Made by a program: the position numbers and the translations under genes
Shown: in pieces, positions 1 through 62,946 of the stretch
How the letters are laid out: every line of letters starts with the position of its first letter
Position numbering within the stretch: the first letter of the stretch is position 1
NCBI GenBank assembly: GCA_964492195.1
Contig: CAZBJL010000002.1
Coordinates: 25,472 to 89,471, forward strand
From: an uncultured Candidatus Saccharibacteria bacterium
GTDB lineage: Bacteria > Patescibacteriota > Minisyncoccia > Phycocordibacterales > DATGWK01
Length of the DNA: 64,000 nucleotides
Direction: 5' to 3'
The notes under the pieces: generated by a model
Told to the model about the DNA's origin: nothing
The model's database searches: none
The model's input: only the letters and a program-made list of their open reading frames with translations

Positions 1-570
1 GACAGCAAAGGCGCACGACTCGACCCTGAAAAACTTGTCTATAAATGGAAGCAAGATGACACGGTGAATGGGGCACTTTCAGGATTTGGTAAAAAAACCT
101 TCAAAATTACGCCATCCATCCTTCCTAAACCAATCGATATTGAAGTTGAAGTGTCTTCTTCCGACAATTCCTACCACGCTGTGTCTTCAATCAGCATTCC
201 AAACACGAATCCACAAGTAATTTTTTATGAAAATAAACCACTCTATGGAATTGATTTTGCTCACGCATTAAATAATTCTGCTTTTGAAATTACAGAAAAC
301 GAAGCGCGCATCACCGCAGTTCCATTCTTTTTCTCAAATCAACAAAATCAATTTAATTTACTTTCGTACAACTGGACGCTTAACAGCAACAAGGTAGACC
401 AAGAGGGGAATGAGGTTATTTTGAGGAAGCCGGAAAATGGAACGAGCGGCCAGTCATCGATCAATCTCAATGTTAAAAACTTGGAGAGGTTCATGCAGGC
501 AGCAAGTGCCAGCTTTACTGCAAAATTTAACAATCAAGCCTCAACGCAAAATAGCCAAACCATTTTCTAA
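1..570 (+). CDS. hypothetical protein, 3' portion (ORF open from window start)
   Basis: Frame of the 64..570 ORF has no stop back to position 1; N/S/T-rich, no recognised motif. Confidence 0.35.
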   Translation, partial: DSKGARLDPEKLVYKWKQDDTVNGALSGFGKKTFKITPSILPKPIDIEVEVSSSDNSYHAVSSISIPNTNPQVIFYENKPLYGIDFAHALNNSAFEITENEARITAVPFFFSNQQNQFNLLSYNWTLNSNKVDQEGNEVILRKPENGTSGQSSINLNVKNLERFMQAASASFTAKFNNQASTQNSQTIF

Positions 571-51304: not shown

Positions 51305-51916
51305 ATGCTTACTAAAAATAATTCTTTTCGATTAGTAAAAGGAGATTCTTTGAAAGAAAAGGAAAAAATTCCTACCGCGGTTATTTCTTCGTCGACTGAG
51401 AAAAAACATGTTCCAGATGAAAATAAAAGAATTTTTCTAAAAGCGCTTGGTGTTGCAGGAGTTGGAATTGCTGCATCTCAACTTTTACCAAGGAAAGCAG
51501 AAGCACTTGTGATGGGTAGTACGCCTTCGTCGAGTGTCGTTGGTCTCAAAAATGCAAGCAATACTCGGATCAATCCTGCGACCGAAGAAACCCTCGTCTC
51601 ACTATTGTCAGGTCAGAGTGTTGAAAAATTGTCCATCAACTTGTCTGCGTCGGGTAACGTGTTGGTGCCTGGGTCAGGTAATAAAATTAGAGTGTACGCT
51701 TCGAGATTTTCATTAACTGCAGACGCAACGTCAGTTTCATTTCGTTTTACTGCTGGTGGAACTGATCATGAAAAATATGTAACACCAAAAACCGGTGGAC
51801 TCTATGGTGCAAATAATCACCCCAACTATATTGAAGGGGGAGTGGACGAAGTTTTGTATTGTGTAATTTCTGGCACAACAACAGTGCAAATTAATGTTGA
51901 TTATTTAGAAGTTTAA
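51305..51916 (+). CDS. secreted hypothetical protein with Tat-like (KR-FLK) signal
   Basis: NKRIFLKALGVAGVGIAASQLLPRKAEA resembles an RR-x-FLK twin-arginine signal with KR variant. Confidence 0.4.
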   Translation: MLTKNNSFRLVKGDSLKEKEKIPTAVISSSTEKKHVPDENKRIFLKALGVAGVGIAASQLLPRKAEALVMGSTPSSSVVGLKNASNTRINPATEETLVSLLSGQSVEKLSINLSASGNVLVPGSGNKIRVYASRFSLTADATSVSFRFTAGGTDHEKYVTPKTGGLYGANNHPNYIEGGVDEVLYCVISGTTTVQINVDYLEV

Positions 51917-51941: not shown

Positions 51942-54608
51942 ATGGCAAAGCGCGCAATTGAACATATTTTTACAGGAGCAACGGTACCGTACGAAAATTA
52001 CGATGCTGATAAAACGATGTTGGGAGATTTGATCGAGCAGTACACCGGTGCTCTTGCGACAGACAATTTTGCTGGACCTGCAAAAATTGGCGTCGCTCGT
52101 CCTTTCGAAACAGGAACATCGATCCCGGGAATCTTTCCACATGTTATTTCGTGGGGAAACAAAGAGGGCTTTTATTCTACTGGCACAGTTTCAGTTGCGG
52201 CCACAGCGGTTACCGGATCGGGGACTGGTTGGCTTGCCAACGGAGTTCCGATTGGTGCCCGTATCGGCTTCGGTTCAACAGATCCCGCTAGCATAACTAC
52301 CTGGTATACGATAACGGCAGTAGCTTCAGCTACGGCTCTAACAATAGGTAGTTCTGCGGGGACGATCGCCGGAGGTACCGCTTTTGTTATAAATAAGGAA
52401 ATTAAAAAAGACTGGGTATTTTTGGCTGACGGTATCGCTGCATCTGCAATTCGTCGCATTACATGTTTTGAATACGACAGACTCACATCGCTTTTTTCGT
52501 GGAGAGGTTTCATCACTATCACATACGCTGCCGGTGGAGGTAACCAAACGATTCGTGGAATGCGAGCGGTGTATGAGACGTACACTACAGGAACAATAGG
52601 TGTTTCAGGTGCCACGGTTACTGGTTCCAGCACAACGTGGTCAGCAGATCGAATTGCTATTGGTTCACGTATTGGTTTCGGTAGCACGGATCCAACACAA
52701 ATATCTACGTGGTACTACATCAACGCTGTTGGTTCTGATACCTCTATTACTATTCAAACAAACATAACCGCGAGCGGTACTGGTGGAACCGCGGCAAATA
52801 TTTCAGTATCGTCGAGTACCGCCTATGTCATTGAGGATTTGAAAATTTTAACTGCCACTACCACTGCTACGAATATAAACGCAGGTGGTCTTACAATGGT
52901 GAACGGTCTTTCGTATGACGATTTTGCTGTTGGAGGTACTACCATTGCTGCGGCAACAACGGTGGATAAAACAAAAGCCGCATATTCTCTTGTTGATCTC
53001 GATTCGGTGTATTCAACGGGAACAATAAACACAGTTACCAATTCAACAACAGTTACCGGTTCTGGAACAACGTGGGTGTCAGCCTCTCACGTGGGTTGTA
53101 TGATCGGTTTTGGTTCAACAAGTCCCGCCTCGATTACAGAATGGTTCACTATTACTGCGTTTACGTCGGGTACCTCCATAACTATTTCCTCCGCCACCAC
53201 TGTCACCAACGGTTCAGCGTATGTGATCGTTGGTGGAAACGGTATATCCTGCGGTTTGGCGATGGATGATCGTGATAGTTGGACACAACAATATGCATAC
53301 ATCATTGAGCTTCAGGGAGGAACGACACCACAGGTGTATAAATATAATTTCCGAGTGAACCTCAGTACCCTCGGAAACGTAGAAGCGGGAAAAGCTGCAG
53401 CTGCGTGGGTGCTCACAACCGGTACCCAGACGCTTACTGGAACCGTGACACAAACAAATAATGGGCGAATTGGAACGCTCGCTCATGGTCCTGGTTCTGG
53501 TACGAAGTGTTTGTATTTCGCAGCAACAACAAGGATTCATCGTGCTCCACTCGCTAGTATCACCCAAGGAAGTATTACGTGGGTCGCGGATTCGATGACA
53601 GAAGTACCAACAGGAGGATCGGGAACGTATACCTTAACGAGCTTGATGACATCAGTAGAAATTGCCGATCAGATCGATCGACTTATTATTACTTCAACAG
53701 GAGCAGGCGCGACCGTTGCCCATCATCGTGCCTACATTACAAAATACGACGCCTCTGGTTCGTACCAATTTGACCATATGTTTTTGGCAGATACTGCACA
53801 ACAAGACCAATCTACTGCAGACTCGACCTCTACACCCCACCCGAGTTACCAGGGAGCCGCTTTGTCTGTGTGGTCACAGGCTGGTCTTGTATATATTGTT
53901 CGTACCGGACTTACAGCAACGACGAATATTATGTACGCTGTTCCGCTCGGTGCTGATTGGCAGTACGCGGATGGTACGGTAAATCAAAGACTCATCACAC
54001 CTTCACTTCCTACAACAAATGCAGAAAAACTATCCAGGGTGTTTGTAAATAATGCTGATTATCTTGGATCAGGTGGACTTACGTTGCCGACAGAACCTTT
54101 AAGAATTTATTATCGAACAGCGGATATTACTGATGATTCTGGTTCCTGGACACTCGTAGACACTACAGGAGATTTGTCTGCTGCGAACGTCACGACCGAG
54201 ATACAGTTTGCAATAGAATTTCGAATGATCGGAGCATTGTGTATTCCAAACCGTGTCTACAATCTTTGCTGCACGTACGAAGACAACACAACTGATAGTC
54301 ACTATCAGCCGTCTGTGGGCCAGTCATCTACAACTGGAAAGATTTTTGCATGGAGATTTTCAACTGCATTCGGTGGTACAGTACCGACATTGCGTATCAG
54401 GCTCTACAATGCTGAAACAGATGCGGAATTGCTCGATGACACAACAACGGCTTCTGCTGATGGAACGTGGGGAAAATCAACAAACGATGGGGCAGGGTGG
54501 GGTTTATACGACGCAACGGACAAGGGAAATGAAACGACGTACATTCGGTATACCCCAACGGTCCTTGCTGACAATATAAAAGTAAGAGCGCTTCTCACTC
54601 AAGCATAA
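51942..54608 (+). CDS. large repeat protein (888 aa) with about 45-aa GSGT.W...IGFGST.P..IT.WYTI repeats
   Basis: At least 4 copies of the repeat in the N-terminal 450 aa; Thr/Ser/Gly-rich; no signal peptide seen. Confidence 0.5.
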   Translation: MAKRAIEHIFTGATVPYENYDADKTMLGDLIEQYTGALATDNFAGPAKIGVARPFETGTSIPGIFPHVISWGNKEGFYSTGTVSVAATAVTGSGTGWLANGVPIGARIGFGSTDPASITTWYTITAVASATALTIGSSAGTIAGGTAFVINKEIKKDWVFLADGIAASAIRRITCFEYDRLTSLFSWRGFITITYAAGGGNQTIRGMRAVYETYTTGTIGVSGATVTGSSTTWSADRIAIGSRIGFGSTDPTQISTWYYINAVGSDTSITIQTNITASGTGGTAANISVSSSTAYVIEDLKILTATTTATNINAGGLTMVNGLSYDDFAVGGTTIAAATTVDKTKAAYSLVDLDSVYSTGTINTVTNSTTVTGSGTTWVSASHVGCMIGFGSTSPASITEWFTITAFTSGTSITISSATTVTNGSAYVIVGGNGISCGLAMDDRDSWTQQYAYIIELQGGTTPQVYKYNFRVNLSTLGNVEAGKAAAAWVLTTGTQTLTGTVTQTNNGRIGTLAHGPGSGTKCLYFAATTRIHRAPLASITQGSITWVADSMTEVPTGGSGTYTLTSLMTSVEIADQIDRLIITSTGAGATVAHHRAYITKYDASGSYQFDHMFLADTAQQDQSTADSTSTPHPSYQGAALSVWSQAGLVYIVRTGLTATTNIMYAVPLGADWQYADGTVNQRLITPSLPTTNAEKLSRVFVNNADYLGSGGLTLPTEPLRIYYRTADITDDSGSWTLVDTTGDLSAANVTTEIQFAIEFRMIGALCIPNRVYNLCCTYEDNTTDSHYQPSVGQSSTTGKIFAWRFSTAFGGTVPTLRIRLYNAETDAELLDDTTTASADGTWGKSTNDGAGWGLYDATDKGNETTYIRYTPTVLADNIKVRALLTQA

Positions 54609-54611
54609 TTT

Positions 54612-55301
54612 ATGATCCACATAGAAAAAGGAGAATTCGTAGCAGAAAATCCGTCACTAAAAGTAGTGACTAATACTGGTGACTACGAAGATACAGCTCT
54701 CATTGAATTTAAGGATGTGAACTCCGAAGACGAACTTGTGGCAGGTGCGTACCAGGCGCAGTTTGTGAAATACGGAAGCCTGGTCTACAAGTTCAATGAT
54801 CCAAAAAGTTTAGGAACGGAAATTTTAAGAATTGATCCAGAGTCGACTCACACAGCGGCGTCTTTTGTGAGAATGAGTAATGAACTTTTGGATCAGATGA
54901 ACGGGGGAACTCTGGAGTCGGATTCTTTGGATAAAATGATTCCACAAGAACCGGTAAAACCAAAAGAACCCGTTGTCGAACCAGAGGTGGTTGAAGAAGA
55001 AGATGATGAAGATGAGGAGACAGAACCAACGGACACTGAAACGCGTACCACTCCGCCCGTTGTGATAATTCCAGATACGATTCCTGCAACGACGACCGTT
55101 CCAATCATCGATACTTCTACTACAACACCTGCTCTTCCTGATATTTATACACCAACGTCAACTTCCACAATAAAGTCAGACGCAGTCGAGGAATTACTAA
55201 GAGAAGAAGGATCGGATACTCCATCGGTAGCAAATGAGATTGTTGCGTATGCAAAAAAGAAAGTTAAGAAAAACATTAGGAAAAAGTTAGGCCTTAATTA
55301 A
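54612..55301 (+). CDS. acidic Thr/Pro-rich protein, hypothetical
   Basis: Start 4 nt after previous stop; poly-acidic EEEDDEDEE and TTTPxxP low complexity. Confidence 0.4.
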   Translation: MIHIEKGEFVAENPSLKVVTNTGDYEDTALIEFKDVNSEDELVAGAYQAQFVKYGSLVYKFNDPKSLGTEILRIDPESTHTAASFVRMSNELLDQMNGGTLESDSLDKMIPQEPVKPKEPVVEPEVVEEEDDEDEETEPTDTETRTTPPVVIIPDTIPATTTVPIIDTSTTTPALPDIYTPTSTSTIKSDAVEELLREEGSDTPSVANEIVAYAKKKVKKNIRKKLGLN

Positions 55302-55444
55302 TATGGCTATCACAGATGTAATTTTTCAATCAGGTGATAAGCAGGATTTTGTTGTGGAACTACCAAGTGCCACGTACAGCGGCACACTCAAAGATGTCGC
55401 TGTAGAGTCAGGAAGTACGCAGTACCTTTTGCTCGAAGTCCCTC

Positions 55445-56236
55445 TTGCTTCAAGTAGTATCTTCATCATGTCAGAATAGGCGTGATATTCTAGGGTTTGT
55501 GGAAAGGTTCAAAAATTTCATACACAAATTTACTCCGTATCTCGAAGACATACGAAAGCGTCTGTATTTTACTGCGGTTTTCTTTGCAGCATTTTTCGTA
55601 ATAGGATTTTTAGCTACCAGTAGGATTTTAAGAGCGCTGGTTTCAATTTTTGATATTCAGGATGTTGCCATTGCAACCACGTCTCCTTTTCAATTTGCTG
55701 ATCTTTCTATCGACATTGGCCTTTTCAGTGCGTTTCTAGTATCTCTGCCAATTTTCATTTACAACATTTTTGCCTTCTTGCGACCAGCTCTTAGTAAAAA
55801 GGAAAGGGGAATATTTTTTCTTATGATCCCGCTTTCAATTTTTCTTTTTGCTTTAGGGTTTATGTACGGTTTTTTAATTTTGTACTACGCACTTATGATT
55901 TTGGCTCAAGTTAACGTACGCATAGGAATTCAAAATATTTGGGATATTGGAATGTTTTTGACACAAATCGTCCTTACTTCGGCGTTGCTCGGGGTGTTGT
56001 TTCAGTTTCCGCTTGTCATGACGGGTCTCATCCGTGCCGGCTTTCTAGATGTGTCTTTTTTAAAGAAAAAAAGACGAGTGGCGGTGTTCATTATCTTCAT
56101 TTTTACAACTTTACTTCCCCCAACTGATGGTCTATCATTAATGGCAATGGCGTTACCGCTTATCTTACTTTACGAAATTGCAATTCTTGTAAATTCGGGT
56201 GTGAGAAGGCAAAAAGTGGGAGAAGTTTCGATATAA
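55445..56236 (+). CDS. tatC: twin-arginine translocase subunit TatC
   Basis: FIHKFTPYLEDIRKRLY (TatC HLxELRxRL-like), six TM helices. Confidence 0.75.
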   Translation: MLQVVSSSCQNRRDILGFVERFKNFIHKFTPYLEDIRKRLYFTAVFFAAFFVIGFLATSRILRALVSIFDIQDVAIATTSPFQFADLSIDIGLFSAFLVSLPIFIYNIFAFLRPALSKKERGIFFLMIPLSIFLFALGFMYGFLILYYALMILAQVNVRIGIQNIWDIGMFLTQIVLTSALLGVLFQFPLVMTGLIRAGFLDVSFLKKKRRVAVFIIFIFTTLLPPTDGLSLMAMALPLILLYEIAILVNSGVRRQKVGEVSI

Positions 56237-56264
56237 TCGTTGATTATTAATTTAAATAAATAAA

Positions 56265-56432
56265 ATGCTCGGAAACATTGGCACAAAGGAAATAATAATC
56301 ATCGCGATTATTTTCATCATTCTGTTCGGTGCAAAGAAAATCCCGGAACTTTCTAAAAGTCTTGTAGAATCAATCCGACATCTTCGAGGTGCGTTCAAAG
56401 ATCTTCCTGAAGATGCTAACAAGAAGAAATAG
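56265..56432 (+). CDS. tatA: twin-arginine translocase subunit TatA/E
   Basis: Hand-translated 55 aa MLGNIGTKEIIIIAIIFIILFGAKKIPELSKSLVESIRHLRGAFKD...: TM + amphipathic helix with conserved FG and KLP-like signature. Confidence 0.7.
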   Translation: MLGNIGTKEIIIIAIIFIILFGAKKIPELSKSLVESIRHLRGAFKDLPEDANKKK

Positions 56433-56466: not shown

Positions 56467-59400
56467 ATGTCTGTTCGTGCCCCTTCTATTTCCAATGGAT
56501 TGCGTAGAGTGTCCATATTCACTTGGGCATTAATTATTTTTTTATCTGGGGTTCCAGCAGTTGTAAATGCAGCGTATGAGCGATACGGAACCGGGGAAAC
56601 GGCCGTTGTCGGCGAATTTGTGTATGACGATGATTTTGTGGCGACGACGACCCCTTGTACTGTTTCAATATATGACCCATCGGGATCTTTGATTGTAAAC
56701 GCGGCCTCCATGACTGCTGATGCAAATGGTTGGCATCATTACGACTATTCAGTTCCGTCTTCGGGTCCAGAGGGTACGTGGCCTTCATCAATGACGTGTG
56801 GCAGTGTGCCGACAGGTGATCTGGTAAAGCTAGATAAGACGTTTGTGGTTGGAGCGACTTTTGTATCAACTTCCACGTTGGCGACTTCTGTATGGACGAG
56901 CACAGCTCGAACTTTGACATCGTTCGGTACGCTTGTGGCAGATGTGTGGAGCAATACAAGTCGAACATTGACTGGTGCAGGGCTAAATTCAGGATCACTT
57001 GCAACACAGCTTGACGTTAACAACGCGTCGTCTTCACTTGCGGCAACCTTACCTGCATCTATTTGGGCAAATCCAACTCGTTCACTTACAACGTTCGGAA
57101 CATTGGCTGCAGATGTGTGGGCAAATAGCACACGCACATTATCTTCCGGCGGCGTAACAGCAGTTTCAACTGACGTATGGTCATTTGCAACCCGTAGACT
57201 TTCAGACGCCACGCTTGATTCTGGTTCGCTCGCAACGGTTTCAAATCTTACAACAGCAAGCTCATCTCTTGCCGCTGTCGTAAACGGAACTATTTCAACT
57301 GCCTCAACTTCTTTGGCAGCTGTAATAAACGCGAATACAGATACTCAAGCGTCGACAATAACTTCAGGAGTTAATTCAAATACAAATGCTGCAATTCTTA
57401 GCGCAACTTCATCTCTTGCCGCTGTCGTAAACGGAACTATTTCAACTGCCTCAACTTCTTTGGCAGCTGTAATAAACGCGAATACCAATTCTCAAATTTC
57501 AAGTGCGGTTGTGACTATCAACAACAATACAAATTCAACTGTCCTCACGGCATCTTCTTCTCTTGTTGCAACTATTCCTACCGCGGTATGGTCAAACAAC
57601 ACAAGATCACTTACAACGTTCGGAACATTGGCTGCAGATGTGTGGAACGTAGCTACGTCATCTTTTGTGACGGCAGGGTCAGTGGGTCTCCAGTTGGTAA
57701 CAAATCTTGATGTGCCTGTTTCAACAGCAGTGGGCAGTGCAGCACCAACCGCTTCGGACATTTGGAGTTTTGCGAGTCGAACACTTACAGACTCAACGCT
57801 TACTTCTGGTTCACTCGCAACATTGGCGAACGTAACGAGCGCGTCGTCTTCGCTGGCGTCAGCGGTTAGTGCAGGAACCGCAAGTGTCAATTCAAATACA
57901 AATGCCGCTGTGCTTGTAGCGTCAACTTCTCTCGCAACAGTTATTAATGCAAACACGAATTCACAAATATCGAGCGCAATCGCTACGATAAACAGCAACA
58001 CAGATTCTCAAGTTCTTACGGCCTCGACATCGTTGGTCGCCACTATCCCTACGGCTGTCTGGTCGAGTACGTCACGTTCATTAACAACATTCGGAACATT
58101 GATTGCAGATATTTGGACTAATCCAACTCGTACGCTCACATCCGGGGGTTCTCTAACGGCAGCAGACGTCTGGTCGTTTGCAACTCGTCGTCTTTCAGAC
58201 GCTTCGCTTGATTCTGGTTCGCTCGCAACGGTTTCAAATCTTACAACAGCAAGTACATCTCTCGCTGCGGTAATAAATGCGAATACAGATACTCAGACAT
58301 CAGGAATAGCTTCATCGGTTAATTCAAATACAAATTCAGCAATACTTAATGCGTCTACGTCGATTGCGTCAGGCGTAAATGCAAATACAAATGCCGCAAT
58401 TCTTGGCGCAACTTCATCTCTTGCCGCTGTCGTAAACGGAACTATTTCAACTGCCTCAAGCTCTTTGGCATCTGTAATAAACGCGAATACAAACTCTGTG
58501 GTTCTCGGTGCGTCCACATCGGTTGCTGCGGTTGTGAATACTAATACTAATTCCCAAACATCTGGAATCGCATCAGCAGTTAACTCAAACACGAATTCCA
58601 TTGTTGGTAGCGCTTCTACATCTCTCGGAGTATCTCTCACCTCGCTTCCAGCTTCCGTGTGGGCATATAGCTCACGTTCACTTACAACCTTTGGAACGCT
58701 CGTTGCGGATATTTGGGCAAACGTAACAAGAACACTCACGTCATCAACGGGCGCTACATGGTCTATGACAGTTTCTGATTTTGGAACTATTACAGCAGGA
58801 AGTAATTATCTCGCGACACTCCACACAGTTTTTGACGGTACTCTTACTGATGCCGACACTGTTCCGACAGTTACTCTCTATGATCCTAGTCGAAACGTGG
58901 TCGTGAGTGGGGTATCTATGACTCGTGTTTCTGCGGGTACTTATACATATTCATACACGACGTCAGGGTCTGCAGAAGCAGGAACGTGGGAAACAGTATT
59001 TTCTGCGACCGTAGAAACAGGAAAGACGTTGGGTGGTAACGATTACTGGGAGGTTTCTTCAAGTCCGGCGCAAGTAATTATTAATAGTATTTCAGACAAC
59101 ACAGTGCCGTCCATCGAAGCAAACGTTACGATAACAAACGAAGGTTTGACTGGATATGAATATCAATACGAGTGGTGCGTGGTTTCAGATATAAATAATT
59201 CTTGTGGAGGCGGAGATGACATTTTCCACGCAACTGCAGCAAAATTTATTAACCCTGGTGAAGATTTCAACACAACGCTTACCTCGACTGTTTCTTCTGT
59301 TGGGGATTACTACTTTAAAGCCGTGGTCTATTTCGGGACTGAAAGTTCCGGTGCTTCAAGGTCTTTTTCCGCAATATCAGACTCAACGTCACCGCCAACT

Positions 59401-59640
59401 ACTCCTAGAGGAGGTGGTGGAGGGGGCGGTGGTTCGTCCGGTTCTGGGGTTGTCCAAACACAGGGATGTCCGAACGCTGATTTCAACTGTGACAACAGAG
59501 TAAACTCAATTGATTTCTCGATATTGTTGTACTACTGGAAGGCAACTCCACCGTTTGGAAATGCAAGCACGGATATGAATCATGATGGTAAAATAGACTC
59601 AGTTGATTTCTCGATATTGTTGTATTGGTGGGGTAATTAA
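56467..59640 (+). CDS. giant secreted Ser/Thr/Ala-rich repeat protein with poly-Gly linker and C-terminal dockerin-like duplicated Ca-binding segment
   Basis: Signal peptide; dozens of about 25-aa repeats; PRGGGGGGGGSSGSG; C-terminus DFNCDNRVNSIDFSILLYYW ... DMNHDGKIDSVDFSILLYWW (two dockerin-like repeats). Confidence 0.55.
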   Translation: MSVRAPSISNGLRRVSIFTWALIIFLSGVPAVVNAAYERYGTGETAVVGEFVYDDDFVATTTPCTVSIYDPSGSLIVNAASMTADANGWHHYDYSVPSSGPEGTWPSSMTCGSVPTGDLVKLDKTFVVGATFVSTSTLATSVWTSTARTLTSFGTLVADVWSNTSRTLTGAGLNSGSLATQLDVNNASSSLAATLPASIWANPTRSLTTFGTLAADVWANSTRTLSSGGVTAVSTDVWSFATRRLSDATLDSGSLATVSNLTTASSSLAAVVNGTISTASTSLAAVINANTDTQASTITSGVNSNTNAAILSATSSLAAVVNGTISTASTSLAAVINANTNSQISSAVVTINNNTNSTVLTASSSLVATIPTAVWSNNTRSLTTFGTLAADVWNVATSSFVTAGSVGLQLVTNLDVPVSTAVGSAAPTASDIWSFASRTLTDSTLTSGSLATLANVTSASSSLASAVSAGTASVNSNTNAAVLVASTSLATVINANTNSQISSAIATINSNTDSQVLTASTSLVATIPTAVWSSTSRSLTTFGTLIADIWTNPTRTLTSGGSLTAADVWSFATRRLSDASLDSGSLATVSNLTTASTSLAAVINANTDTQTSGIASSVNSNTNSAILNASTSIASGVNANTNAAILGATSSLAAVVNGTISTASSSLASVINANTNSVVLGASTSVAAVVNTNTNSQTSGIASAVNSNTNSIVGSASTSLGVSLTSLPASVWAYSSRSLTTFGTLVADIWANVTRTLTSSTGATWSMTVSDFGTITAGSNYLATLHTVFDGTLTDADTVPTVTLYDPSRNVVVSGVSMTRVSAGTYTYSYTTSGSAEAGTWETVFSATVETGKTLGGNDYWEVSSSPAQVIINSISDNTVPSIEANVTITNEGLTGYEYQYEWCVVSDINNSCGGGDDIFHATAAKFINPGEDFNTTLTSTVSSVGDYYFKAVVYFGTESSGASRSFSAISDSTSPPTTPRGGGGGGGGSSGSGVVQTQGCPNADFNCDNRVNSIDFSILLYYWKATPPFGNASTDMNHDGKIDSVDFSILLYWWGN
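57190..58500 (+). repeat. near-identical intragenic nucleotide repeats (about 77-85 nt units)
   Basis: Unit gcaacttcatctcttgccgctgtcgtaaacggaactatttcaactgcctcaa...ctgtaataaacgcgaatac occurs at about 57262, 57402 and 58408 with 1-3 mismatches; a second unit at about 57196 and 58184. Confidence 0.6.
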
Positions 59641-59647
59641 TTAAAAA

Positions 59648-60550
59648 ATGAAAAATATATTCAATATAAAATTTATAATCTTTGCGGTTTTGTTCAGTGT
59701 ATTACCTGCGAGCGTTTCTGCGGCGACTGTGTATCTGGAATCTTCTCGAAACACCATATCCGTCGGTGACACTGCTGTTGTTGCTGTAAAAATAAACGCA
59801 GAAGGGGGAGTGCTTAACACTGTGGACGGCGAAATAGGTATGAAGTCTCTCTTGAACAATGTTGTTGTGCAGGAGTTCAGTTTATCTAATTCCTCTTTTG
59901 GTTTGTGGCCGCGAACTCCTTCACTTTCTACCGACGGTAAAACAGTTTCTTTCGTTGGTGGTGTACCGGGAGGATTCAGTATTGAAGGAGCAACCCTTTT
60001 TAAAATGATAATTGAAGCGAGAAAAGAAGGTACTGTAATTATTAGTCCGCAAAATATTTCTGTCTTTGCTAATGATGGTGCGGGCACAAAAATGCCCGTT
60101 ACTATGAAAAACTTGGCAATTCGGGTTGTGCCAAAAAATCCCAACACTCCTGTACAAAATGACTGGGCTGGAATTGTGGCACAAGACGCCGTTGCTCCGG
60201 AGTCATTTATTATTGTTCTTGGACAAGACAACTCACTTTTTCAGGGTAAAAAGTTCGCATTTTTCAGCTCTGTCGACAATCAGTCGGGGATAGACTATTA
60301 CGAGGTCTCTGAAAATGGCAGACCCGCAGTCCGAAGCGGCAGTACATACGTCCTCCAAGATCAAAGTGAAAACGTAACTCTTGATGTTGTTGCGGTTGAT
60401 AAGGCTGGAAACAAAAAAACGGCATCGCTTCGTTCCGGAAAAGACGGCATCGCGTGGCCTTTCGTTATTGTTGTGGTGATCCTGGGAGTTATTGGTAAAT
60501 GGTTGTACAGAAGATGGAAAAATAAGAGAAATGCTTCACGCGTTCTTTAA
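59648..60550 (+). CDS. secreted beta-sandwich (cohesin-like) protein with C-terminal TM anchor
   Basis: Signal peptide, SSRNTISVGDTAVVAVKINAEG... pattern, C-terminal TM WPFVIVVVILGVIGKWLY + basic tail. Confidence 0.45.
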   Translation: MKNIFNIKFIIFAVLFSVLPASVSAATVYLESSRNTISVGDTAVVAVKINAEGGVLNTVDGEIGMKSLLNNVVVQEFSLSNSSFGLWPRTPSLSTDGKTVSFVGGVPGGFSIEGATLFKMIIEARKEGTVIISPQNISVFANDGAGTKMPVTMKNLAIRVVPKNPNTPVQNDWAGIVAQDAVAPESFIIVLGQDNSLFQGKKFAFFSSVDNQSGIDYYEVSENGRPAVRSGSTYVLQDQSENVTLDVVAVDKAGNKKTASLRSGKDGIAWPFVIVVVILGVIGKWLYRRWKNKRNASRVL

Positions 60551-62243
60551 AAAAAATACGGGCGGTTTTGTTCTTCTGTTCGCTGTATTGTTAAGCTGTT
60601 CTTTTCTGTGGGCAGATGTTGCTCACGCCGCAACTATTTCTTTTTCTCCCTCTGTTTCAACGGTGTCTGTCGGTAATATTGTTACCGTAAAAGCGTTGGT
60701 GAACACGGCTGGAAAAGCTATCAATAATGCCGACAGCATTATTCAGTTTCCTTCAGATCTACTCGAAGTTATTTCTGTAAGTAAGGGCGGATCCGTTTTT
60801 TCTCTTTGGGTAGAAGAACCTTCATTTTCTAACCCATTAGGTCGGGTAACTTTCAATGGAGGTCTTCCAAATCCTGGCTTCAATGGTGTAAGCGGTGAAA
60901 TGGTTTCAGTTGTATTTAAGGCGAAAAAAACTGGTGTAGCGACGATTGCTTTCTCTGATTCCGCCGTGCGTGAAAACGATGGTCTCGGAACAGACATTCT
61001 TACTGCAAAGCAATCAACAACACTCCAGATTGGTGCGAGTGTTCCAGTTGTTCCTTCATTGGCAGGCGTCCCCGTAAAACCAACAGTTACTTCTTCAACT
61101 CATTCAGAGCAGGAATCTTGGTACACAGAAACAACCGCAATATTAAGCTGGGTTATTCCGAGCGGGGTCTCATCTATTCAAACTCTTCTCACCAAGAATC
61201 CAAATGAAACACCAACACTTACGTACGACAGTTCTGTATCACAGCGTACCGTTACTGATATTGCTAATGGTGTTTCATATTTCCATTTGCGCTACATGAA
61301 TGCCGCTGGTTGGGGACCAACAGCTCATTACAAAATCCAAATCGACAATGTGTCACCTGACGCCTTTCTACCCCGTGTCCGTATAGAAAATAGCAAAAAT
61401 ATTGTGGTACTCGATGCCACTGACGCTACGTCTGGGATAGATTCATATTCATTACAGATCGATAATTACCCTGCACTTACTGTGCGGAAGGATTCTATTA
61501 AAAATGGTGAATATGAACTCCCGGTTCAAACTGTAGGAGATCATAGCTTGCAGGTTGTTGCTTACGATAAGGCGGGGAACAAAACCGAAGCGCATACATC
61601 ATTTTTAAGTCCACAGATAACCGCTCCGAAAATAGTTCTTTCATCGGAGACAGTTCAACGTGGTGAAAGCGTGATAGTAAATGGAACGTCTGCGTATGCA
61701 CGAGTACCGGTTGAAGTATTTACTCAAATAAATGACAAGAAGATAAAAGTTTACAGCGCCACAACTGGTGACGATGGATCGTTCACGATTACTTCAGAAA
61801 AATTAAATACGAGCGGATCGCTTCATGTGTGGGCACAACTTGTATTTTCAGAAAGCGTACAGAGTCCACTTTCTGAAAAAGTAGAAATGCAGGTTGATGA
61901 TTCTCTTGTAGTTCAAACAAGTCTGTCGCTTATTTACACTCTTGCGTTTGTGATTCCAACAATAATTCTGATAATAATACTTACATTTATCATGTATCTC
62001 GGTTGGCACAAGTTCTTTGGTTTGCGACGAAAACTTCAGGATGATTTAGATGAAACGGTAAAAGAAACACACAAAGCATTCACTCTTTTCAAAGAAGAAC
62101 TTGGTTTGCAGTTAGAAAAACTAGAGAAGATAAAAGAGGATCGAGATCTGAATAAAAAAGAAGAGAAGATATTCAAACAACTTCAGTCAAATATTGATGA
62201 TATTGATGAGTTTATACACAAACGCCTTCGAAAAATCACATAG
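60531..62243 (+). CDS. paralogous secreted cohesin-like/Ig-like multi-domain protein with C-terminal TM anchor and coiled-coil tail
   Basis: N-terminal domain ATISFSPSVSTVSVGNIVTVKALVNTAGKAINNADS parallels previous gene; TM near residue 480; start at MLHAFFKK. Confidence 0.45.
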   Translation: MLHAFFKKNTGGFVLLFAVLLSCSFLWADVAHAATISFSPSVSTVSVGNIVTVKALVNTAGKAINNADSIIQFPSDLLEVISVSKGGSVFSLWVEEPSFSNPLGRVTFNGGLPNPGFNGVSGEMVSVVFKAKKTGVATIAFSDSAVRENDGLGTDILTAKQSTTLQIGASVPVVPSLAGVPVKPTVTSSTHSEQESWYTETTAILSWVIPSGVSSIQTLLTKNPNETPTLTYDSSVSQRTVTDIANGVSYFHLRYMNAAGWGPTAHYKIQIDNVSPDAFLPRVRIENSKNIVVLDATDATSGIDSYSLQIDNYPALTVRKDSIKNGEYELPVQTVGDHSLQVVAYDKAGNKTEAHTSFLSPQITAPKIVLSSETVQRGESVIVNGTSAYARVPVEVFTQINDKKIKVYSATTGDDGSFTITSEKLNTSGSLHVWAQLVFSESVQSPLSEKVEMQVDDSLVVQTSLSLIYTLAFVIPTIILIIILTFIMYLGWHKFFGLRRKLQDDLDETVKETHKAFTLFKEELGLQLEKLEKIKEDRDLNKKEEKIFKQLQSNIDDIDEFIHKRLRKIT

Positions 62244-62946
62244 ATTCTTTGTCGATCCTTTGTAAAACGCCGCCAGTTACGTGCGCTTGGATAATTTCCA
62301 ACTCTTTGGTGGCAGTAATTGAGTATTCGATTGTTATTATATTGTCTGTGATATAAATATTTTTTGGAACCACTTCATCTCCTAGAAAAATAAGATTTGT
62401 GCCTGTGTAGCCGGTCTCACCATTCAGAGCAGCGGCGAGATAGTAGAGCATTCCTCTGGAATCATCATTTCTATTTATTATAAAAGCAACATCCTCTTTT
62501 CCGTCACCGTCCAAATCACCCCTTGCTTCGGTGCCGAAATATTGTTTCGGAGTTTTATTTGTTGCTTGCAAGACGGTTGCTGTGTGTGCAAAAACATCAT
62601 CTACAATGACATGCTTTTTAGAGCCGGCATTTTGTTCTGCAAAAATTAAGCCTCCAACAAGGAGAATGATTGGAATAATAACGTAAGCGGCGCGAGTTAA
62701 TTTTTTAATGATTAAACCAACAATAGCTCCATATAAAGTGAAGACTGTGACGAAGAAGGCAAAGGATGTTATCAAAACTTGATTTTCTGGAATGTGAAAT
62801 TGTACAAGAAGGGGACGAAGCGATATCCAGTGCAGCGCATGACCAACAAAGCCACCGTTGCTTATGAGAAAGGTTGTGTATGCGGCCACAACAACCCCAA
62901 TAAAAAACCCAATAATACTTGTTTCAAGAACCGTGAGTCTTTTCAT
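62236..62946 (-). CDS. hypothetical membrane protein (N-terminal TM helices + C-terminal soluble domain)
   Basis: Hydropathy only. Confidence 0.4.
   Translation of the reverse strand: MKRLTVLETSIIGFFIGVVVAAYTTFLISNGGFVGHALHWISLRPLLVQFHIPENQVLITSFAFFVTVFTLYGAIVGLIIKKLTRAAYVIIPIILLVGGLIFAEQNAGSKKHVIVDDVFAHTATVLQATNKTPKQYFGTEARGDLDGDGKEDVAFIINRNDDSRGMLYYLAAALNGETGYTGTNLIFLGDEVVPKNIYITDNIITIEYSITATKELEIIQAHVTGGVLQRIDKESM

Follow-up and report, generated by a model that had tools for sequence, protein, structure and literature searches.

Cohesins that serve outside plant-cell-wall degradation are known from the GH84/GH33 toxin complex of Clostridium perfringens (2vo8, 2w1n, 2o4e) and from Archaeoglobus fulgidus (2xdh). 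These proteins each carry a single cohesin, and in C. perfringens the modules link secreted glycoside hydrolases to one another. In cellulosomes, the anchoring scaffoldins OlpA, OlpC and SdbA of C. thermocellum (3ul4, 4dh2, 5k39) and ScaE of R. flavefaciens (2zf9) attach by SLH modules or sortase, and their cargo is an enzyme-loaded scaffoldin. In the Saccharibacterium Southlakia epibionticum, PMC10633639 describes SEML1_0315 as an essential envelope protein with a dockerin domain, a finding presented there as unexpected and possibly related to host interaction.

Here we describe three adjacent genes, A, B and C, of an ultra-small CPR bacterium, in a stretch of 64 kb that we analyzed as a whole (the window). 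Like the C. perfringens and A. fulgidus proteins, the trio uses cohesin-type modules outside plant-cell-wall degradation, with one such module in each of B and C. Within the whole window there is a single dockerin and a pair of cohesin modules, all of them in the trio. We consider it probable that A, B and C constitute a surface-display module of Paceibacteria (CPR/Patescibacteria) based on a non-cellulosomal cohesin-dockerin pair, in which a fibre of variable length is plugged onto the cytoplasmic membrane.

Table 1. Features of the A-B-C locus and its immediate neighbours; positions are those of the window.
Feature	Residues	Position	Strand	Basis or remark
TatC and TatA		55445-56432 (TatC 55445-56236; TatA 56265-56432)	+	34 nt upstream of A; Pfam TatC, E 1.8e-37; TatA ORF; synteny
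Gene A, secreted dockerin-bearing fibre protein	1057 aa	56467-59640	+	ORF; Pfam MG2 and Dockerin_1; AF2 model; same-architecture homologues
A, signal peptide (...VPAVVNA/AYERY)	1-35	56467-56571	+	read from sequence; AF2 helix 4-27
A, N-terminal MG2-like beta-sandwich	40-130	56584-56856	+	Pfam MG2, E 2.1e-9 (residues 41-106); AF2 strands, pLDDT ~94
A, repeat stalk	131-762	56857-58752	+	motif map; composition; DNA repeats; AF2 helices
A, C-terminal tandem beta-sandwiches (second MG2-like domain and a further beta-sandwich)	763-972	58753-59382	+	AF2, pLDDT ~95
A, flexible linker including Gly8	973-1002	59383-59472	+	read from sequence; pLDDT <50 at 974-997
A, dockerin module (two F-hand Ca loops and helices)	1003-1057	59473-59637	+	PF00404; family HMM; column conservation
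Gene B, short membrane-anchored cohesin-type protein	300 aa	59648-60550	+	
B, signal peptide	1-25			
B, cohesin	26-161	59723-60130		
B, Ig-like domain	189-261	60212-60430		
B, TM helix	268-294	60449-60529		followed by short Lys/Arg tail
Gene C, long membrane-anchored cohesin-type protein	570 aa	60531-62243	+	
C, cohesin		60624-61055		
C, Ig-like domains		about 61056-61925		
C, TM helix	466-493	61926-62009		
C, tail	73 aa	62022-62240		after TM helix; charged, helical, cytoplasmic
Membrane protein	236 aa	62236-62946	-	3 TM helices; extracytoplasmic domain with DLDGDGKED loop

The three genes are tightly packed: B starts 7 nt after A ends and overlaps C by 20 nt (Table 1). For C we used the ATG at 60531, the start of the product on record; the mechanical ORF begins at a TTG at 60492. 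A scan for promoters and terminators gave no signal exceeding background. The 236-aa membrane protein is a conserved neighbour of C that lies on either strand in other genomes, while TatC and TatA are frequent but separable neighbours of the trio and are probably not needed for A.

The first-pass annotation had proposed that A ends in a poly-Gly linker and two 22-aa segments resembling a dockerin. The C terminus indeed reads GGGGGGGG-SSGSG...DFNCDNRVNSIDFSILLYYW (residues 1005-1024)...DMNHDGKIDSVDFSILLYWW (residues 1036-1055): eight glycines, a run kept across the A family, precede a canonical duplicated dockerin in which each segment of ~22 residues comprises a 12-residue Ca-binding loop and then a helix. 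The profile search suggested as a check, with Pfam Dockerin_1 (PF00404), matched residues 1004-1051 with an E value of 4.9e-9 and 36.7 bits, above the gathering score of 22.9 bits. PF00404 was also a precomputed match on nearly all relatives of the A C-terminal region, among the matches listed. Our dockerin family HMM scored 102 bits on A, the sole dockerin within the window. The Ca loop of the first half has D1005, N1007, D1009, N1013 and D1016, and that of the second has D1036, N1038, D1040, D1044 and D1047. Across 107 family members, conservation at loop positions 1, 3, 5, 9 and 12 (D, N, D, N/D, D) is at least 95% for both halves, and the helix FSILLxxW is nearly invariant in both. Structure prediction, likewise proposed as a check, agreed: AF2 placed helices at 1014-1024 and 1045-1054 (pLDDT 86-94) in a confident module that follows the disordered Gly linker.

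B and C are annotated merely as hypothetical proteins. As had been noted from the ORFs, both begin with signal peptides, which are Sec-type and end in AxA, and both have similar N-domains (32% identity over 163 aa, E 3e-15) and one C-terminal hydrophobic helix each (residues 268-286 by hydrophobicity in B, 466-493 in C). A second, Ig-like domain is also common to the two proteins (37% identity). The AF2 model of B shows a beta-sandwich, then an Ig-like domain and then a TM helix; weak matches in C were to Big_13, DUF7743 and OmpL47-type domains.

The proposal that the N-domains are cohesins fared less simply. The Pfam cohesin profile (PF00963) did not match B or C even at E<=1, nor any of 34 B-family members, and searches of B and C with NCBIfam, PHROGs and PDB sequences did not find a cohesin. 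However, a profile built from the B/C N-domains found P0347 with an E value of 6.6e-29. P0347 is orthologous to C along its full length (35% identity, E 2e-107), and its residues 34-144, which correspond to the same N-domain, score 33.1 bits with PF00963, against a cut-off of 24.1. Fifteen of the 114 strong family members match PF00963, and at E<=1e-3 the cohesin-like N-domain family numbers 6,040 representative clusters. The predicted fold is also that of a cohesin, a nine-stranded beta-sandwich of jelly-roll type, as the earlier annotation anticipated. Thus, judged from the orthologues together with the predicted fold, the N-domains of B and C are homologous to bona fide cohesins by way of intermediates. 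The first-pass annotation had named two outcomes that would count against its docking proposal, a lack of profile matches and a lack of the expected folds, and neither came about.

Upstream of the dockerin, A consists of an MG2-like domain, presumed to be the distal tip, a stalk rich in Ser, Thr, Ala and Asn, and tandem beta-sandwiches that are the best-conserved part of the protein. We considered A as a Tat substrate, a possibility prompted by the adjacent tatC-tatA genes and by the arginine pair of the sequence GLRRVSIF in the window copy. We rejected it on finding that the family does not keep this arginine pair: a pattern search of 51 aligned A-family sequences returned a single match (P0401), and N-termini in the family are Sec-type. 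A had been called a giant protein; its 1057-aa reading frame stands, but the size is relative, as homologues in different genomes measure about 411 to about 2,015 aa, with both ends conserved.

The stalk contains 13 VWxxxxRxLT motifs interleaved with runs of 15- or 19-residue NxNT[ND] units. Ser, Thr and Ala make up 52% of it, and Lys, Glu, His and Cys are absent. AF2 predicted helices of 53-111 residues (259-369, 453-532, 589-659 and 667-719), although the full-length model is poor overall (pLDDT 66, pTM 0.31) and leaves the VWxxxxRxLT segments unmodelled. The hydrophobic period is 3.75-3.79. Right-handed coiled-coil stalks of the YadA-like pentadecad type have a period of ~3.75 (15/4), which the A stalk matches, and the stalk is probably an oligomeric coiled coil.

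At the DNA level, the body of A carries the near-identical repeats reported by the first-pass annotation. Positions 57256-57348 and 57403-57495 are 94.6% identical over 93 nt, 57256-57339 and 58408-58491 are 94.0% identical over 84 nt, and 57082-57120 and 57607-57645 are 100% identical over 39 nt; a longer pair, 57172-57492 and 58165-58497, is 80.7% identical over 336 nt. Tandem Repeats Finder detected no array in A. The repeats are dispersed modules without a head-to-tail arrangement. Metagenome contigs therefore frequently break within gene A.

The trio is chromosomal and syntenic in at least 46 genomes, where it adjoins genes for a tRNA synthetase, RecO, SecE/NusG and TatC. We scored linkage at 46 loci from Paceibacteria-type genomes, counting testable cases only. 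The dockerin lay directly upstream of B at 45 of 45 loci, and C lay directly downstream of B at 42 of 42. A single dockerin goes with two cohesin modules at every locus apart from one with four. B and C occur as natural in-frame fusions (P0241 and P0245). The A-B-C linkage also outlasts rearrangement of all other neighbours, as at loci L004 and L028.

A model that accommodates these data is as follows. B and C would be exported by Sec, lose their signal peptides and be held in the cytoplasmic membrane by the lone C-terminal TM helix, with their N-terminal cohesins facing the outside of the cell. The B cohesin would be carried by one Ig-like domain and the C cohesin by a longer Ig-like stem, while C would additionally extend its helical tail into the cytoplasm. 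A, secreted by Sec, would plug its Ca2+-dependent C-terminal dockerin, tethered by the flexible Gly-rich linker, into the B cohesin, the C cohesin or both; from the module identities and gene linkage, we infer that this binding is physical. The tandem beta-sandwiches of A would then sit near the membrane, with the stalk directed outward and the MG2-like domain at the tip. The stalk may act as a modular spacer whose length shifts by recombination between near-identical repeats. Such an appendage would most likely contact other cells or surfaces, and, by analogy, the role of A-B-C may be adhesion or host attachment.

The docking could be the same but the role structural. In this alternative, which we regard as possible but doubtful, A, B and C form an envelope scaffold, such as an S-layer-like coat, a cross-wall spacer or an RbmA-like biofilm-matrix fibre, rather than a host-attachment organelle. 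In Foldseek searches, the best matches to the C-terminal beta-sandwiches of A were RbmA, a scaffolding protein of biofilms, and pairs of MG domains from alpha2-macroglobulin, C3 and TEP1. Nearly all of these genomes have the module, which lies amid housekeeping genes, and the stalk is uncharged and Ser/Thr/Ala-rich, as in many envelope proteins. However, five-fold variation in stalk length between relatives is unlike a lattice-forming S-layer protein, and fibrillar adhesins usually carry one globular domain at the far end of a long stalk, a design that also argues against a scaffold.

We find it unlikely that the dockerin and cohesin modules are real but not partners. The A dockerin would then have another target, such as a cohesin from some other locus, a ligand of host-cell or glycan type, or the cell wall, B and C would bind other ligands, and the linkage would reflect envelope proteins that are made together. 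Surveys by the Bayer group reportedly show that non-cellulosomal dockerin-like and cohesin-like modules often lack an identified partner, which counts for this alternative. So does PMC10633639, where a dockerin-domain protein of a Saccharibacterium is read as possibly glycan-directed. Covariation between dockerin and cohesin was flat: mean normalised mutual information over 40-41 loci was 0.259 with cohesin B and 0.251 with cohesin C, against 0.227-0.341 for control domains, in a test of low power in which sequences are few and phylogeny confounds. Against a lack of partnership stand the strict adjacency of one dockerin to two cohesins, its persistence where other neighbours are rearranged, and the high conservation of both the dockerin helices and the cohesin core.

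Very improbable is a prophage or mobile-element remnant in which A is a tail-fibre-like receptor-binding protein, and we reject it. Phages commonly have repeat-rich fibrous proteins, and a neighbouring protein of 888 aa weakly matches PHROG tail fibres (E 1.7e-5). However, A, B and C lack significant PHROG matches (B is marginal to a family of unknown function, E 0.089), the region shows no compositional anomaly, B and C are cellular membrane proteins, and the trio keeps its chromosomal synteny. We give still less credence to a minimal cellulosome that would break down polysaccharides as an enzyme complex: the cohesin-dockerin pair is a hallmark of cellulosomes, but the trio has neither dockerins on carbohydrate-active enzymes nor a multi-cohesin scaffoldin with a CBM, as searches of Pfam, NCBIfam, PHROG and Foldseek found no enzyme or catalytic domain in A, the only dockerin-bearing protein of the window has no glycoside hydrolase or CBM, and B and C, with one cohesin each, lack CBM, SLH and sortase signals. 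The earlier suggestion that this is not a cellulosome is borne out by A, which combines MG2-like beta-sandwiches with a repeat stalk and no catalytic module.

CPR/Patescibacteria represent a large share of bacterial diversity, and attachment to other cells is the presumed lifestyle of most of them. To our knowledge, almost nothing is known of their surface structures beyond a few cultivated Saccharibacteria. Our literature searches for dockerins and cohesins in Patescibacteria, Parcubacteria, CPR and Saccharibacteria did not find the trio, returning only the remark on SEML1_0315 and unrelated rumen and biogas papers. The surface-display module that we favour is thus a defined three-gene candidate for a CPR surface or attachment appendage and, if the reading is correct, widens cohesin-dockerin biology to include a non-enzymatic fibre displayed from membrane anchors. 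More tentatively, and with well under even confidence, we suggest that the trio is an undescribed surface organelle with a wide distribution in Paceibacteria: an oligomeric coiled-coil fibre of evolvable length, whose symmetric dockerin engages B and C as two distinct membrane receptors, holding the fibre without covalent bonds, and in which the conserved helical tail of C reaches the cytoplasm. The fibre would perhaps serve these episymbiont-like bacteria both in attachment to a host or partner and as a link from contact to the cell interior.

Compared with known systems, the trio departs from each in how the modules are deployed. Unlike in C. perfringens, the fibre that bears the dockerin is free of enzymes and the cohesins belong to integral membrane proteins, and sequence identity to the non-cellulosomal cohesin-dockerin pairs is just 12-18%. 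Whereas cellulosome anchors use SLH modules or sortase, B and C use a C-terminal TM helix, and the cargo is a repeat fibre; no X-module adjoins the A dockerin, and the host is a CPR bacterium rather than a Firmicute. SEML1_0315 resembles A by description, as a dockerin-bearing envelope protein of a Patescibacterium; the bacterium that carries it belongs to a CPR class different from the Paceibacteria, and PMC10633639 uses the word cohesin 0 times, its passage on the protein making no mention of a cohesin partner or conserved trio. Fibrillar adhesins and stalks of the trimeric-autotransporter type share with A the design of a repetitive, length-variable stalk with a globular domain at its distal end. 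A differs from them in having no autotransporter barrel, LPXTG motif or isopeptide domains, and its anchoring is predicted to be non-covalent, through the dockerin.

The genes for the dockerin-bearing protein A and the short and long membrane-anchored proteins B and C run in the same direction and are tightly packed, in a region of unremarkable base composition. For C, the product on record starts at the ATG at 60531, whereas the mechanical ORF starts at the TTG at 60492. Rfam searches of the window detected seven tRNA genes spread over 22474-46869 and no rRNA, consistent with ordinary chromosomal DNA from a small genome.

Features of the A-B-C locus and its surroundings (window coordinates)
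Feature	Coordinates	Strand	Remarks
203-aa protein gene	51305-51916	+	Tat-type signal at residues about 40-68
Conserved upstream block	51942-55479	+	888-aa protein, then 229-aa protein, then 58-aa ORF
tatC	55445-56236	+	upstream of A; Pfam E 1.8e-37
tatA	56265-56432	+	55 aa; between tatC and A; below default ORF-listing size
Gene A	56467-59640	+	1057 aa, ORF
A signal peptide	56467-56571	+	window copy with 'GLRRVSIF'; just after tatA
Gene B	59648-60550	+	300 aa; start 7 nt past A stop
Gene C	60531-62243	+	570 aa; 20-nt overlap with B
236-aa membrane protein gene	62236-62946	-	downstream of C, convergent with it

Protein A ends in a poly-Gly tract (GGGGGGGG-SSGSG) followed by DFNCDNRVNSIDFSILLYYW (residues 1005-1024) and DMNHDGKIDSVDFSILLYWW (1036-1055). 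Pfam Dockerin_1 matched at 36.7 bits (gathering score 22.9; E 4.9e-9), bearing out the duplicated dockerin proposed in the first-pass annotation, and some A homologues carry the NCBI label 'dockerin type I domain-containing protein'. Alignment of 107 C-terminal tails from relatives revealed that Ca-loop positions 1, 3, 5, 9, and 12 are D, N, D, N/D, and D in at least 95% of tails in both halves, with the helix FSILLxxW after each loop equally fixed. In the AF2 model, a disordered Gly linker leads into a confidently predicted module (pLDDT 86-94) whose helices span 1014-1024 and 1045-1054. This module is close to symmetrical between its halves. Near-symmetrical halves accompany dual binding modes in known dockerins, and by analogy the A dockerin may share that property.

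B and C are paralogues with two domains in common: N-domains 32% identical over 163 aa (E 3e-15) and Ig-like domains at 37% identity. Both are currently annotated 'hypothetical', and neither matched a cohesin in any sequence library searched. B falls in a tight family of ~300-aa proteins with 430 matches; among the best 120 of these (54-73% identity), Pfam annotation was absent except for three weak BatD matches. The AF2 model of B (pLDDT 84, from a 34-sequence alignment) consists of a signal helix, a beta-sandwich (26-161), a short helix, a beta domain (189-261), and a TM helix (270-294), and its predicted fold is that of a cohesin. A profile of the B/C N-domains detected 6,040 representative proteins at E<=1e-3, and 15 of 114 top family members matched Pfam Cohesin. 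P0347, a full-length orthologue of C (35% identity, E 2e-107), matched Pfam Cohesin at 33.1 bits (cut-off 24.1) over residues 34-144, the domain that the N-domain profile matched at E 6.6e-29. Together with the predicted fold, these matches argue that B and C carry genuine, divergent cohesin modules. The earlier cohesin assignment stood through structure prediction and an orthologue, not through a direct library match.

Sec-type signal peptides with AxA sites were read from the sequences of A, B, and C, and B and C each have a single C-terminal hydrophobic helix, as first described. Once their signal peptides are cleaved, B and C are expected to be type-I membrane proteins that expose the cohesin outside the cell. 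The TM helix is followed by a short Lys/Arg tail in B and by a charged, helical tail of 73 aa in C. Between cohesin and membrane lie one Ig-like domain in B and ~290 residues of such domains in C, with weak Big_13, DUF7743, and OmpL47-type matches.

The same arrangement recurs in related genomes. The complete, 811-kb Campbellbacteria genome CP064977.1 encodes TatC, two TatA copies, a 1344-aa A homologue, B, and C in the same order; its A combines a stalk of several long, near-identical repeats (five or six as read from the translation) with a poly-Gly run and a dockerin. In two more contigs with A-B-C, A is 450-517 aa and nearly lacks a stalk. A scan of one genome per species added a further 42 loci, for a total of 46. 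B was immediately preceded by a dockerin in 45 of 45 loci where this could be tested, and immediately followed by C in 42 of 42. By dockerin and cohesin HMMs, each complete locus has exactly one dockerin and two cohesins, L043 excepted, and our 64-kb window has no others. At L043 (Giovannonibacteria MFIM01000014.1, 10070-12915), four consecutive cohesin-like modules follow the dockerin gene; thus, the cohesin side is expanded in some lineages. B and C are naturally fused in frame in P0241 (872 aa) and P0245 (728 aa), where the B TM helix and the former signal peptide of C form a topologically consistent membrane hairpin, which argues that B and C act together. About 20 other representatives with two cohesin stretches are fusions of the same kind.

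Judged by record titles, the trio belongs to Paceibacteria/Parcubacteria lineages (Taylor-, Campbell-, Adler-, and Giovannonibacteria, and 'Paceibacterota'). The title 'uncultured Candidatus Saccharibacteria', which we regard as unreliable naming, is given to many third-party assemblies whose loci are clearly Paceibacteria-like. One dockerin-cohesin fragment (JBBTAG010000083.1, 1257 bp) lies under a 'Nanoarchaeota archaeon' MAG, probably a binning error.

A varies from ~411 to ~2,015 aa among loci with both ends present; lengths under 300 aa, artefacts of truncated contigs, were left out. About 20 of the 46 loci, by reading of locus tables, are on contigs that end inside the A stalk, a pattern that assembly-breaking repeats would produce. 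In the window copy, the near-identical DNA repeats noticed initially were recovered (94.6% over 93 nt, 94.0% over 84 nt, and 100% over 39 nt) and are dispersed, not tandem. The stalk (131-762) is 52% Ser+Thr+Ala, contains no Lys, Glu, His, or Cys, and interleaves 13 'VWxxxxRxLT' motifs with runs of 15/19-residue 'NxNT[ND]' units. For the NxNT runs, AF2 predicted helices 53-111 residues long with moderate confidence; it left the VW segments unmodelled. The best hydrophobic period of all four helices was 3.75-3.79 (15/4 and 19/5), ~2.6 sd over the mean shuffle maximum for helix 259-369 and within ~1 sd for the other three. From this period, the modelled stalk is probably a right-handed coiled coil, and hence A would be an oligomeric fibre. 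These Ser/Thr/Ala/Asn repeats also occur in large proteins (P0442, P0454, P0476-P0490) with C-terminal SH3_3 (PF08239) or DUF1080 (PF06439) domains. The stalk seems to be a module that can be reused.

The stalk is flanked by an N-terminal beta-sandwich (40-130, pLDDT ~94, Pfam MG2 E 2.1e-9) and two C-terminal beta-sandwiches (765-970, pLDDT ~95). Their best Foldseek matches were RbmA and MG-domain pairs of alpha2-macroglobulin, C3, and TEP1. No enzyme domain was found in A by Pfam, AF2 modelling, or Foldseek.

Related genomes carry one to four tandem tatA copies (L001, L004, L035). We considered A as a Tat substrate through 'GLRRVSIF', but the A family does not conserve the twin arginine, which is probably a coincidence in this copy. 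The likely client of the adjacent TatC/TatA is instead the 203-aa protein, whose signal, D-x-N-K-R-x-F-L-K-A-x-G-[VI]-A-G...AEA|LV, has Lys-Arg where the usual motif has two arginines and is kept in the window and nine other loci. About a dozen loci have the upstream block ahead of tatC-tatA-A-B-C, but it is separable (L004, L028). Its 888-aa protein lacks a signal peptide, contains the motif 'GxRIGFGSTDPxxIxxWYxI' three times, and weakly matches a PHROG tail fibre (E 1.7e-5); its 229-aa protein is acidic and Pro/Thr-rich. The block may be a Tat-exported 'hitch-hiker' complex. One related contig, L003, carries at 252-1425, ~8 kb upstream of the trio, a reverse transcriptase and a bAvd-like gene, a combination typical of diversity-generating retroelements. 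The 236-aa protein combines three TM helices with an extracytoplasmic domain that contains the FG-GAP/EF-hand-like loop DLDGDGKED. In about half of the loci a homologue lies 3′ of C, on either strand, and the protein may be a fourth component of the system.

A model that we consider moderately likely is that the dockerin of secreted A is captured, in a Ca-dependent manner, by the membrane-anchored cohesins of B and C. The single dockerin could be held by B, C, or both, and docked A would be a displayed fibre with an MG2-like tip and a length that differs by lineage, which may serve adhesion or partner contact, or act as an envelope scaffold. The modules, their stoichiometry, the topology signals, and the gene linkage are shown here; docking, the oligomeric state of the fibre, and its function are proposed. 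In a covariation test, mean normalised MI was 0.25-0.26 between dockerin and cohesins versus 0.23-0.34 between dockerin and control domains, in a sample of ~41 loci that does not discriminate. The cell-surface docking proposed at first pass is supported.

We found no description of the trio in the literature searched; the nearest mention is of an essential dockerin-domain envelope protein of a Saccharibacterium (PMC10633639). The trio, which is conserved and abundant, is unannotated and lends itself to direct testing. It would work like cellulosome-anchoring pairs and the non-cellulosomal pairs of C. perfringens. As initially suggested, it is not a cellulosome, as it has no enzymes, multi-cohesin scaffoldin, or CBM. 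While cellulosome anchors use SLH or sortase attachment, the trio uses a TM helix; its cargo is a repeat fibre and its host a CPR bacterium.
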